This document shows positions 5,241 to 38,815 of a stretch of 64,000 nucleotides of DNA, piece by piece. The position numbers and the translations under genes were made by a program. Positions within the stretch are counted from its first letter, which is position 1; every line of letters starts with the position of its first letter. The DNA is from Camelus dromedarius (taxonomy: Eukaryota), in assembly GCF_036321535.1 (NCBI RefSeq), contig NC_087436.1, positions 25,484,001 through 25,548,000 on the forward strand, in the 5' to 3' direction. The notes under the pieces were generated by a model. The model ran no database searches. It was not told where the DNA came from and was given only the letters and a program-made list of their open reading frames with translations.

Positions 5241-6738
5241 ATCTTTGCAAATTAGGAAAAGGTATGTGAAAATACATTTGCCTTCAAGCTGGTCTAGGGT
5301 AGCTCCATGTTTAAGTTTGTTAATGCTTGGAAATCTGGTACTGACTCTTGGCCACGGTGAAAATAAACTGTGCTACCTAGTACTTTCAATGTGCTGGTTA
5401 AAGTTCACAGTTTCCCTGGAGACAAAATACTCTTGTGTCTATTGTTAACTGAAAATGTATTATCAATGATTTACATCTAGTTTAATTGGTTACATAGCCT
5501 GGTTTTAGGTACTTTACCAGTGGAGTACAGAGGATTGTGGAGTATTGTGTTTTGACTTCCCTGAAACTAAGACTAAACACATAGTTTGAAAATGAAGGAT
5601 ATTCTGTGTAACCAAGAAAAATCCCTGGGGGCTGTGCTTAAAAGTTTTCTGATCTCTGAGATGATTTCTTGCAGTTCCTTTCTCTTGCTGTACCATATCC
5701 CTTATCTTTATGAACACCTTTACAGGAGTTTACCCTGTGGATGTTCTTTCAATTACCTGATTAATTGCTGCAGTTGGCATGGTGAGCAAGTTAATTGTAA
5801 TACTCTTGACTCAATAATATAAATAATTGCTAAGACTTAGTGTAGGAAAAAGAAAGATGAGGAATGGCAGAATGGAGAATATGCAGAGCCAGGATGGCTT
5901 CCTGACCACCTCTGCTTTGAGGTCCTCAATCACTGTGACAACTGAAAGGAAGAAACACTTATCAGTGGGAACTGGAGACATTAGATCTACAACAGCAGGG
6001 AGTAGCCAAATGGATTCTTAAAAATTCAAACAAAGGGGAGGTTAGCCCCTTAATATGGTACTTTGGTTGCTTTTGATTGCTTTGGAGAAAACAAAAGTAA
6101 CTGATAAAAATCTCAAGGCTGTCAAGCTCTCAAATTACAGTCCATGAACCTGTGTGTTCAGAGGACAAACATGACACCAAAGAAAGGTAGGCTTTTTTTT
6201 TTTTTTTAATGAAATGTGATTCTCATCCAATAATAAATCACTGCAAGGATTATATGGATTACAGGAGATATGAATTAAGATACACCTAAAAGATGGGAAT
6301 ATTGATTCAAATGGTTAAGTCATTTTGTGGAACATTATTAGTAGATTTATTCTAAGACATTATTTAAATAGATCATTGGTGATCAGGGAGCTATTCCCTT
6401 GTATTAGATGTTACTAAATGAAAAGGCACATTTGGTCTTAACTCAGGATCTTCATTAACTTCCACTTTGCAGGAAATATAGCTAGATAGACAAACTCCCA
6501 AACTGTTGAATGACATAAAGTAGAGATAGGTAATTTACAGCCTGAGAAAGAAATTGTCCAAATCCATCCCAAGCTATTAAATGGAATACTGTTTCTGAGG
6601 CTGCTGAAATGTGGGACGTGCAAACACACGTGGATTCGTTTTAATGATGATACAGAAGTAGTCAGTAACTCTATGCCTTTGACCAAAGTGATGTTTGATG
6701 CTGTGAGAAAGGAGTTTCCAATTGCTTATTTGGAGACC

Positions 6739-7557
6739 GAGGACGGGCTCCAAAAGAAGTGACGGGAAAGCTGCCGACAGGGGGCTCCCCCTCCCCCAGA
6801 GAGCCCTCTTCCTGTTAAGACTGTGAGAAGCGGCCCCCAGGGCGATGAGAAAGGCGGTGGAAAGGTCAGGTGGCCAGGCCCGGTTGGGGAAGCCCTTCCA
6901 GCTCCTGGTTCTGCTTCAGTTCCCTCATCCTGTGTCGGCAGCGCCGCAGGAATCTCATTATCTTCCGGGCTGCCTGGTCTTGCTTTTTGGTGAGAAAGGA
7001 GCCTTTGTTTCGGGCAGGCAGGCTGCCTGTGGGCCGGTGGGGAGGCCCAGGCCGGCGGCGGTAGGAGCGGTAGTGCTGCTGGATGAGTACTGCTGCTCTG
7101 CGGCTCTGCTGAAATCGCTTCTGTTCGTAGTAGCTTCGGAACTTGCTCTGGATCAGGATGGCTGCCTGGGTCATCTTCTTATAGAGTGCAAACTGCTTGT
7201 ACTTCCGGTAACAGCGCTGGATCACAGCTGCTGCTACCTCCTGCTGCTCCTTCAGCCGCCGGCCCTTGTACTTTCGGAAGGCTGTCTGGATGACCCGGGC
7301 TGCCTCATACAGTTCCCGCTGCTCATGATCCGATAGCGTCAGCAGGGCAAAATCACTCTCCATCTTGCCACTGGCAGACGCAGAGAGAAACTCGGCGCAG
7401 GAAGGTGCTGGAGGGATAGCCAGGCGACCCCGCTCTAAGGGCAGTTCGCTGGGAGGGGCTGAGCTGGGGAAATGGTCCACATTCTCCAGGTAGCTGGCCA
7501 GCCAGGACATGGTCTCGCTGAGCCCCACAGCCCCCGTCCGCTCCCGCATTGGGTCTC
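6739..7557 (-). pseudogene. CAMTA2: Processed (intronless), 5'- and 3'-truncated CAMTA2 retrocopy: last ~227 codons plus ~127 nt of 3'UTR
   Basis: GC/CpG-rich island in AT-rich DNA. The translation matches the recalled CAMTA2 C-terminus continuously across what are several exons in the parent gene. No poly(A) tail. Confidence 0.93.
6866..7549 (-). CDS. CAMTA2: Intact 227-aa ORF: CAMTA2 C-terminal fragment with tandem IQ calmodulin-binding motifs; lacks CG-1, TIG and ankyrin domains; expression unknown
   Basis: MRERTGAVGLSETMSWLASYLENVDH...IQTAFRKYK...IQRCYRKYK...IQSKFRSYY...IQQHYRSY...ELEGLPQPGLAT*. No stop or frameshift. In-frame TAG six codons upstream in the flank. Confidence 0.55.
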   Translation of the reverse strand: MRERTGAVGLSETMSWLASYLENVDHFPSSAPPSELPLERGRLAIPPAPSCAEFLSASASGKMESDFALLTLSDHEQRELYEAARVIQTAFRKYKGRRLKEQQEVAAAVIQRCYRKYKQFALYKKMTQAAILIQSKFRSYYEQKRFQQSRRAAVLIQQHYRSYRRRPGPPHRPTGSLPARNKGSFLTKKQDQAARKIMRFLRRCRHRMRELKQNQELEGLPQPGLAT

Positions 7558-7720
7558 CAATTCCCTATTGTCAGAACAGGGTCACATAAGGCAGAGTGAT
7601 GTGACAGGTGTTGTGGAGTACTTCCTTGCTGAGCTTCCCCAGTACGGGGTGGAGTAATGGGAAAATAGTTGCAATTTAAGAAGTAAACAATACAAATTAA
7701 ATGCATGAAATACCCATGGA

Positions 7721-7761
7721 GCAATTAAACCAAGTAGAAGGGCAATTAAACCAGGTAGAAG
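7721..7761 (+). repeat. 21-bp tandem duplication
   Basis: gcaattaaaccaagtagaagg followed by gcaattaaaccaggtagaag. Confidence 0.9.
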
Positions 7762-9097
7762 TGTTCAGATAGTTAATTAAAACAAGACATAAAAAAGGAA
7801 GAGATAGATGAAATAGCTATTAAAAATTTACTGGGTTACTATAAAAAAAATAGGTGGTTTAGCTACTCTCCACCCCTAATACTGCACAAAGACCACAGTG
7901 AATTTATTGTTTGCTATAGCTTTGATGAATTTTAAAAAATAACACAAAGGAGGAATGTAAAATTCCTTCTAAATAGTGCCAATTAAATGTTGTGAAGTAA
8001 AGGAGATGCTATAATTTTGAGTGGCAGGATGACTAGGATCTTTTAGTGTAACCCCAGCAGGGGACCAAGTCCATTTGCCTTAATAAAATGGTCTAGATAT
8101 GGTGAATAAACTTTATTGTGACTTCTTGACACTAGTGCACAAAGTACTGTCATAACTAAACTCATTAATCAAAGCCTAAAGGGCAATAGAATTATGTTAA
8201 GAAGATACAGTGATGCCACTATAAAAGACTTCAAAGTATGAGGAAGAATTTAAGAACAAATGTTACCTATGATTACTGTCCCACCCCATCAGTGTGTATA
8301 ACTGTAATGGGACAGATGTTTGAATGGGAGACTATGTCCTTTTCCAAACCATTGGAAAAGGGATATCATTCAAATCTGCTGTCATACTATTTTAATTTGT
8401 ATGCCTAATAAGAAACTTTACATTACCTAAACATACTTCAGTGGTTAATTTAAAGCAGTATCAGATACCTTGGAGAATATCAACACATTTCAGCTTTAAT
8501 TAAGGATATTTTAGATCCAAATCTCTCAGTACCCACAAGTTCTTTCTTTAGCAGTCCAGTATGGTCTAGAGAAAAGGTGATGGGTCCAGGAGGTTAACTT
8601 TAGACTACAGAGGACTACGTGGAGTGTTGCCTTCAACAGCATCAGTTCTTCCCAATGTGCGGTTAATTCAAACTGTCCTAGAAACTAAAGCAGATTCGGT
8701 GTTCAATTTGGCTAACATTTTCTTTTCAGTAACTACTTCAATTTTTTTTAAAGAAGAAAATTGGGGGTAAAAAGCCAGAACCAATGTGCAATCATGTGAG
8801 ACAAACTCTAATATACATTCAGAATCTATAATATTGTGCTTACATAGGGATATTTAAATTCCCTTATTGCCAGAGTCTAGAGAGAAGGACTTATACTTGA
8901 AATTAATATTAAATTGGAAGTACATAATACACACGTGTGTGTGTGTATAATATTGATGATATGTTGATTCTCGATTGGTAAATCAAGCTCAGATTGAGTT
9001 ATAAATTCTGGTTAATCATATAATTTCCAGTGTGAAGCTGGTTATTCTGGATAAGGTATACTGTTTATCACAAATGGGAAAATTCTTGGGAATATTC

Positions 9098-38656: not shown

Positions 38657-38815
38657 AATTTTTTTAATTTTTAAATTTTTCTACTGAAGTGTAGTTGATT
38701 TACAATGTTTCTTTCTTTCTTTTTTTTTTTTCCTTAATGATGGTATTGGGGATTGAACCCAGGACCTAGGGCATGCTAAGCATTTGCTCTACCACTGAGC
38801 TATACTCTCTCCTCC
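38657..38815 (-). mobile_element. tRNA-derived SINE (Vic-1-like) with an L1-3'-like tail inside one TSD
   Basis: Reverse complement reads ...tatagctcagtggtagagc (A box)...gggttcaatcccc (B box), A-rich linker, aacattgtaaatcaactacacttcag, A-rich tail. TSD aaatggtaatg(c)tttt at 38642 and 38816. Confidence 0.88.

Follow-up and report, generated by a model that had tools for sequence, protein, structure and literature searches.

A tail-less, doubly truncated CAMTA2 retrocopy with an inexact target duplication and an inverted repeat at its junctions

The window, that is the whole stretch of 64,000 nucleotides of dromedary DNA analysed here, contains what its sequence identifies as a copy of spliced CAMTA2 mRNA that is truncated at both ends, has no tail and is flanked by a target duplication (Table 1). 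It is a real and recent retrocopy, and its junctions, the reading of which is suggestive and hinges on the empty site, hint at a pairing of the RNA with the far side of the break and at an editing of the exposed DNA by a host mutator, which they suggest and do not prove. The reading that we prefer, with a probability of roughly 0.4, is that a spliced CAMTA2 mRNA was recently retrotransposed into a 17-nt staggered cut, with LINE-1 reverse transcriptase as the most likely enzyme, and that far-overhang pairing and editing took place. Tail-less cDNA captures are already known, and the locus represents one unusual variant of them.

Table 1. Features of the insert and its junctions (window coordinates; IR, inverted repeat; DR, direct repeat)
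Feature	Position	Strand	Remarks
Spliced CAMTA2 mRNA fragment (retrocopy), both ends truncated, without poly(A)	6731..7552	-	Open frame, exon joins, GC step
3'UTR part, first 135 nt, no poly(A) signal, last 24 nt fold as predicted local hairpin	6731..6865	-	
Coding part, stop and final 228 CAMTA2 codons, IQ calmodulin-binding motifs	6866..7552	-	No frameshift or premature stop
Left copy of 17-bp DR (3' target duplication relative to mRNA)	6714..6730	+	T6716, G6724, T6726 differ
Right copy of 17-bp DR (5' target duplication)	7553..7569	+	C at 7555, 7563, 7565; probably unedited
Left arm of IR	6730..6738	+	T6730 target; 6731-6738 probably parent UTR, from peptides
Right arm of IR	7552..7560	+	G7552 from parent Pro codon; 7553-7560 in right DR copy

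The insert of about 821 bases represents a near-intact CAMTA2 3' end. It forms a GC-rich block within an AT-rich window, in which the GC content outside the insert amounts to 28-43% per 2 kb and steps up at both insert ends. Its open frame is 98% identical to cetacean CAMTA2, which gave the top protein matches. Five exon borders are fused without introns, as can be seen from intron read-through peptides and isoforms: two borders follow from the intron read-through peptide P0231, two from P0173 and P0163-P0172, and one from the skipped micro-exon LTWIALK, which is present in 58 of 156 aligned proteins. The earlier note had described the insert as a doubly truncated internal fragment of a spliced mRNA, and the five intronless exon borders and the missing tail bear this out. 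At the 5' cut, an in-frame Met is left three bases inside the insert (7549-6866, minus strand), and because of this position the copy has an intact 227-residue frame with IQ motifs; ATTAAA (6645) and AATAAA (6351) are found on the same strand downstream of this frame, in the flank. The insert is most likely functionally neutral. No CAMTA2 retrocopy was found in the literature searched, which consisted mostly of open papers, and supplementary lists of polymorphic retrocopies might include this one.

Both junctions carry a copy of a direct repeat. The imperfect repeat that the earlier note had seen (6717-6730 and 7556-7569, 12/14 identities) was recovered and extends to 6714-6730 and 7553-7569 with 14/17 identities. 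A 12/14 match near both junctions was obtained with 88 of 200,000 random position pairs. For a repeat that was already there before a blunt insertion, the 12/14 match was counted at 47 of 63,000 flank positions (11 without low-complexity sequence) and the 14/17 match at 14 of 63,000 (2 without low-complexity sequence). The overall chance of the direct repeat is thereby about 1e-4 to 1e-3; it is evidently not a chance match, and a duplication is present at both junctions. Like a canonical LINE-1 processed pseudogene (class 1 TSIP), the locus shows intron removal together with a target duplication (14/17, inexact), but unlike such a pseudogene it has neither a poly(A) tail nor a poly(A) signal 10-30 nt upstream.

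The earlier note was right in stating that the UTR ends without an A-tail; the UTR length of ~127 nt given there has to be corrected to 135 nt (6865-6731), because the left arm of the inverted repeat contributes eight bases to the UTR. None of 12 poly(A)-signal hexamers scanned was found inside the UTR part, and the sole hexamer match, AATAAG, lies in the flank at the junction. A search with the off-frame UTR translation yielded three clusters with 11 proteins (P0163-P0173) that read through the CAMTA2 UTR. As these related peptides read Val-Ser-Thr in 11/11 cases, where the window reads Val-Ser-Lys-stop, the parent UTR should reach 6731 and then diverge from the window, the parent bases being deduced at the peptide level from relatives and not from the DNA of this species, with no camelid-named protein among the matches listed. 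P0165 is the closest UTR peptide, with 24 of 25 residues as in the window, and the other ten appear ruminant-like; the first 31 residues of P0165 are off the CAMTA2 UTR frame of the other ten, which points to a chimeric contig or to another CAMTA2 UTR copy. Past the junction, the UTR of the relatives goes on with Thr-Pro/Ala codons and runs on for 27-159 codons in 11/11 peptides, and as no Lys codon follows over at least 25 codons in any of the 11, there should be no run of five A beyond the junction. An A-rich priming site in the parent UTR, which the earlier note had named as the finding that would speak against its own view, is thus absent in 11/11 related peptides, and A-rich internal priming appears to fail because the parent UTR continues without an A-tract. 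It is for these reasons highly improbable that the copy arose by ordinary priming at poly(A) or at an internal A-tract with a later loss of the tail and an ordinary decay of the duplication: the length of the duplication is typical for LINE-1, with a peak at 14-16 bp (PMC2912911), but a poly(A) signal and an A-tract in the continuation are missing, and three mismatches are too many for a copy of this young age.

The insert is bracketed by TTGGAGACC (6730-6738) and its exact reverse complement GGTCTCCAA (7552-7560), and this 9-bp inverted repeat, also described in the earlier note, is not extendable by one base on either side. The two arms appear to have different owners, as 8/9 bases of the left arm would belong to the parent 3'UTR and 8/9 bases of the right arm to the direct repeat. 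At the 5' junction, the parent proteins read E-A-G-A-P-M (169/218), and the window frame reads G-I-G-D-P-M; the right arm thus encodes Asp where the parents have Ala in 211-214 of 218 aligned proteins, and otherwise Thr or Val. The parent origin is certain only from 7552 down and not upstream thereof, and 7553-7555 may alternatively be parental with one substitution, in which case the duplication would comprise 14 bp; no off-frame peptide spanning the 5' junction was found among 249 fetched proteins. If a duplication of 17 bp is assumed, the informative core of the inverted repeat is 7 nt, with 7553-7559 being complementary to UTR positions 6731-6737. For a single register, the chance of this core is 5e-5, and it rises to 1e-3 to 3e-3 when the plausible registers are counted together, a figure on which it bears that the inverted repeat was picked after the fact in a large scan. 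Of the 821 insert nucleotides, 721 were scanned for the target 7-mer, and nowhere but at the truncation point did it match with one mismatch or fewer.

Two explanations that had been offered for the inverted repeat find no support. A stem of the mRNA that closes the captured fragment does not agree with the right arm, which encodes Asp instead of the parental Ala, Thr or Val and lies inside the target duplication, and an inverted copy of the empty site does not agree with the left arm, which appears to be parent UTR. Also a DNA-transposon-like element with terminal inverted repeats was rejected, as one arm is mRNA and the other overlaps the duplication. To all appearances, the inverted repeat represents neither the terminus of an element nor a stem of the mRNA. 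The CAMTA2 coding part contains a 24-nt inverted pair (7050-7073 and 7241-7264, 83% complementary), and as this pair exceeds the junction repeat in length, it is a reminder that GC-rich insert sequence readily yields such pairs.

In the preferred reading, the inverted repeat would be the footprint of a pairing between overhang and UTR. A staggered cut would generate two complementary 3' overhangs, and the terminal 7 bases of the minus-strand overhang on the right would pair with UTR positions 6731-6737, in the manner of the second primer in twin priming, with the RNA past this overhang hybrid being lost, which would result in a tail-less 3' end exactly there. The left-hand plus-strand overhang, which ends with TATT, would then prime the cDNA without base pairing, about 820 nt would be copied, and the end of the cDNA would join the right overhang. 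Finally, the left overhang at three C and the cDNA at one C (7397) would be deaminated while single-stranded, and the resulting C to T and C to G changes would render the duplication inexact. The weak points of a LINE-1 model are the only partial endonuclease site and the unpaired priming: on the plus strand, the nick CTATT/GT agrees with TTTT/AA only in part, and the nick on the other strand shows no agreement with it. An unpaired priming without poly(A) is not the usual behaviour of LINE-1. No description of far-overhang pairing or unpaired priming was found in the literature searched. It can be proposed tentatively that the locus naturally records two TPRT steps in the germline, namely the capture of the mRNA by the second overhang and an editing of the APOBEC3 type that affected the cDNA and the bottom-strand overhang on the 3' side. 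Such a second-overhang capture would fix the tail-less 3' end without inversion, and the literature consulted reports neither step from cells.

The proposed pairing has a relative in twin priming, in which the other DNA end finds a short complementary stretch within the same RNA and anneals there (Kojima 2010, PMC2912911), and fold-back annealing of cDNA ends has been described as well as twin priming (PMC2912911, PMC11702581, PMC13174262). Also at the locus, the second DNA end is complementary to an internal RNA site, over 7 nt, but twin priming results in an inverted 5' segment and a 3' segment with poly(A) (PMC2912911), whereas the locus has one segment in one orientation and no tail.

It is possible, albeit doubtful, that the 7-nt complementarity is coincidental and that a LINE-1 insertion with target duplication used a decay fragment as template that stopped at a hairpin base in the UTR, perhaps with a few added A that paired with the terminal TT of the target, hence the missing tail. 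The 3' end of the insert indeed lies at the base of a predicted hairpin with -10.8 kcal/mol, the sense-strand flank starts with AA, and just 7 of the 9 paired bases need an explanation, a kind of coincidence that a scan selects; the UTR folds no better than shuffled sequences (z -0.84), however, the chance of the 7-nt match is as low as given above, and truncated oligoadenylated templates are, in the passages of Noll et al. (PMC5322556) concerned with them, unsupported for the tailless copies of 5S and U2.

Another proposal of the earlier note was the capture during double-strand-break repair. Its first part, an internal mRNA fragment, stands, and a plain patch fits poorly with a 14-17 bp duplication exactly at both junctions. 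Class 2 TSIPs are described as polymorphic insertions without target duplications (Onozawa and Aplan 2016, PMC5110952), and they and the products of RT-product-mediated break repair (Ono et al. 2015, PMC4516963) are spliced cDNAs of 300-800 nt that, like the locus, have no poly(A) and are doubly truncated. Their junctions, as far as described in the portions of these two papers that deal with them, show microhomology or microdeletion and no duplication, which differs from the 14-17 bp duplication of the locus, and the no-duplication feature of class 2 would hold at the locus only if the right copy were a templated insertion. In this manner it could be envisaged that a double-strand break was patched with a cDNA made beforehand (class 2 templated insertion or RT-mediated repair), that the right junction arose by folding back and copying the left one, followed by a TCCAA switch onto the left flank, and that the TATT match is due to chance. 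This is unlikely. Tail-less, doubly truncated spliced cDNAs of similar size were captured at mouse zygote breaks (PMC4516963), TCCAA at 6717-6721 is the reverse complement of 6730-6734, and the perfect 9-bp match would be explained without mutation, but two template switches and a chance 5/7 in-register match would be required, class 2 events are defined by the absence of a target duplication (PMC5110952), and it would be left unexplained why all mismatches are at C.

Closest to the locus are the tailless retropseudogenes, which are 3'-truncated, have no A-tail and possess duplications that measure 8-35 nt and show an identity of 70% or more (Noll et al. 2015, PMC5322556). According to the same source, those with duplications are found in thousands, doubly truncated long RNAs included, and copies of mRNAs with truncated 5' and 3' ends are also abundant (Schmitz et al. 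2004 is cited therein). The locus is similarly 3'-truncated and without A-tail, and its duplication has 17 nt at 82% identity. Tailless retropseudogenes show complementarity at the priming 3' junction, often in A-rich single-stranded RNA (PMC5322556), whereas the locus appears to have no complementarity at its 3' junction (primer TATT), is not A-rich there, and has a 7-nt match at the 5'-junction overhang instead; its truncation is not in A-rich single-stranded sequence but at the base of the predicted hairpin. The locus is thus not a clean tailless retropseudogene, though behaving like one, because one defining feature of each family fails. Among the mobile-element insertions of 1,019 human genomes, 15.7% were non-canonical, and two thirds of these were without poly(A) (PMC12350158).

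A tailless retropseudogene would result if the insert had originally been in the opposite orientation, primed by the minus-strand end via the 7-nt match, and had later been inverted between its near-complementary ends, whereby the inversion would also have perfected the repeat. With the segment flipped, there would be a primer complementarity of 7 nt at the 3' junction and a duplication of 17 bp, both within the ranges of 2-18 nt and 8-35 nt given by Noll et al. (PMC5322556), and the editing would have taken place on the 5' top strand, as observed by Richardson et al. (PMC4003774). We nevertheless regard this course of events as quite improbable, since an extra inversion via only 8-9 bp is required, GGAGAC/TC, the nick at which priming would have begun, does not correspond to a LINE-1 site, and the parent would have to read TGGAG just 5' of the Pro codon, with GGA being used in 0/10 Gly codons of the copied frame.

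In the preferred reading, the mismatches of the duplication date from the insertion, and the age of the copy bears on this. Within 231 residues, the insert differs from cetacean CAMTA2 by four amino acids, one of which is at the junction and two of which are at mammal-variable sites. The fourth is a Trp to Cys exchange at base 7397, at a Trp that is invariant in 218/218 aligned CAMTA2 proteins, and it corresponds to a C to G change on the plus strand. C to G changes are known from deamination followed by abasic-site bypass. The observed/expected ratio of CpG is 0.54 in the insert versus 0.09 and 0.13 in the flanks. To judge from these values, the retrocopy is a young, recent insertion. At a divergence of 0.2-1%, neutral decay would leave three mismatches within 17 bp with a probability of only 4e-5 to 4e-3, and the three mismatches of the duplication therefore probably date from the insertion.

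At all three mismatches, the right copy has C, and the left copy has T, G and T. The differing sites are 3/6 C versus 0/11 other bases (Fisher p 0.03), a bias that comprises three sites only, was noticed after the fact and presupposes the direction of change. As every C of the repeat sits in TC or CC, the sequence context is uninformative for editing. The three mismatches and the Trp to Cys exchange are all at plus-strand C, i.e. on the strand that would be primer and cDNA, and this pattern suggests a cytidine deamination on a single-stranded overhang, with the left copy being the edited one. Richardson et al. (PMC4003774) describe one inexact duplication that was caused by APOBEC3A, with C to T in the 5' copy, and that was recovered in cultured cells with uracil repair blocked; for the bottom strand, a case unseen in cells, they predict G to A in the 3' versus the 5' duplication. 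The locus has the polarity of this prediction, with two G to A changes and one G to C change, and it resembles APOBEC3A-edited duplications in the strand-specific C changes between the copies and in the cDNA strand (PMC4003774). C to G changes such as those of the locus are not mentioned in the relevant sections of that paper (PMC4003774), which was the only one found in a literature search for APOBEC3 and inexact duplications.

Sequencing runs give some indication of how widely the insertion is shared. When 252 sampled words were compared across 24 listed runs, with five rows of a share of at most 0.13 set aside, one run contained 1.00 of the words, and 13 other genomic-size runs from 9 studies, one of them belonging to a second organism, contained 0.91-0.94. 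An empty site together with an intron-containing parent would result in a share of about 0.90. The best other run misses 15-16 words, which is on the low side of the empty-site expectation (p 0.02-0.05), and the same ceiling is expected from at least five private substitutions in the source haplotype. It is thus a possibility, with roughly even odds, that the insertion is polymorphic and a rare allele, and the word counts fit loosely with this. A chimera of genomic DNA and cDNA that arose during assembly or library preparation in the source sample is very unlikely: all sampled words are present in just 1/24 listed runs, possibly the own source of this DNA, which would agree with an artefact, but neither a junction-exact 17-bp duplication nor a copy-specific substitution of an invariant Trp would be expected. 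The word shares of the RNA runs were 0.66, 0.56, 0.34, 0.31 and 0.25. The runs with 0.34 and 0.31 correspond to the prediction from the insert alone (0.31-0.32), which was counted toward the youth of the copy, and the two with 0.66 and 0.56 (window positions 5900-8400), which are labelled as reproductive system, have about twice the share from the insert alone, which may reflect transcripts from the flanks or carried-over DNA.

The priming of tail-less mRNA copies and the marks that APOBEC3 enzymes may leave on germline retrotransposition intermediates have mostly been addressed in cultured cells. If the empty site equals the right copy, bottom-strand editing has a natural case in this locus, whose two signatures can be counted genome-wide. 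The overhang-capture reading, if true, predicts a class of tail-less retrocopies inside a short inverted repeat, with one arm from the RNA and one arm from the target duplication, and with C-biased inexact duplications; such insertions would be misclassified by pipelines that rely on a poly(A) tail or on two identical copies of the duplication. Taken alone, the locus is a single insertion that is probably neutral and that, as a possible rare allele, may serve as a marker.

In the flanks, self-comparison revealed no match at the junctions and otherwise just remote similarity to repeats in other parts of the window. An 82-codon plus-strand frame (6514-6762) enters the insert from the left, probably by chance, and for this frame no homologue was found among longer proteins (those of 41-131 aa lay outside the search) or in PDB, and none above cut-off in Pfam; also nine other flank frames gave no family above cut-off. 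With the flank frames having no homologue and no family above cut-off, a disrupted host exon or a provirus at the site is unsupported. A right-flank frame that was compared with 1.84 billion representative proteins gave six repeat-like matches of 30-55% identity, none from the locus, the frame that runs from the right flank into the insert is absent from the protein collection, and no metagenome contig matched a 22-nt motif from the right flank. A tRNA-like match at 38738-38809 (minus strand, 39.1 bits) is probably a SINE head or a tRNA pseudogene, and 150 bp to the right of the insert there is a 21-bp tandem duplication (7721-7761) with 95% matches.
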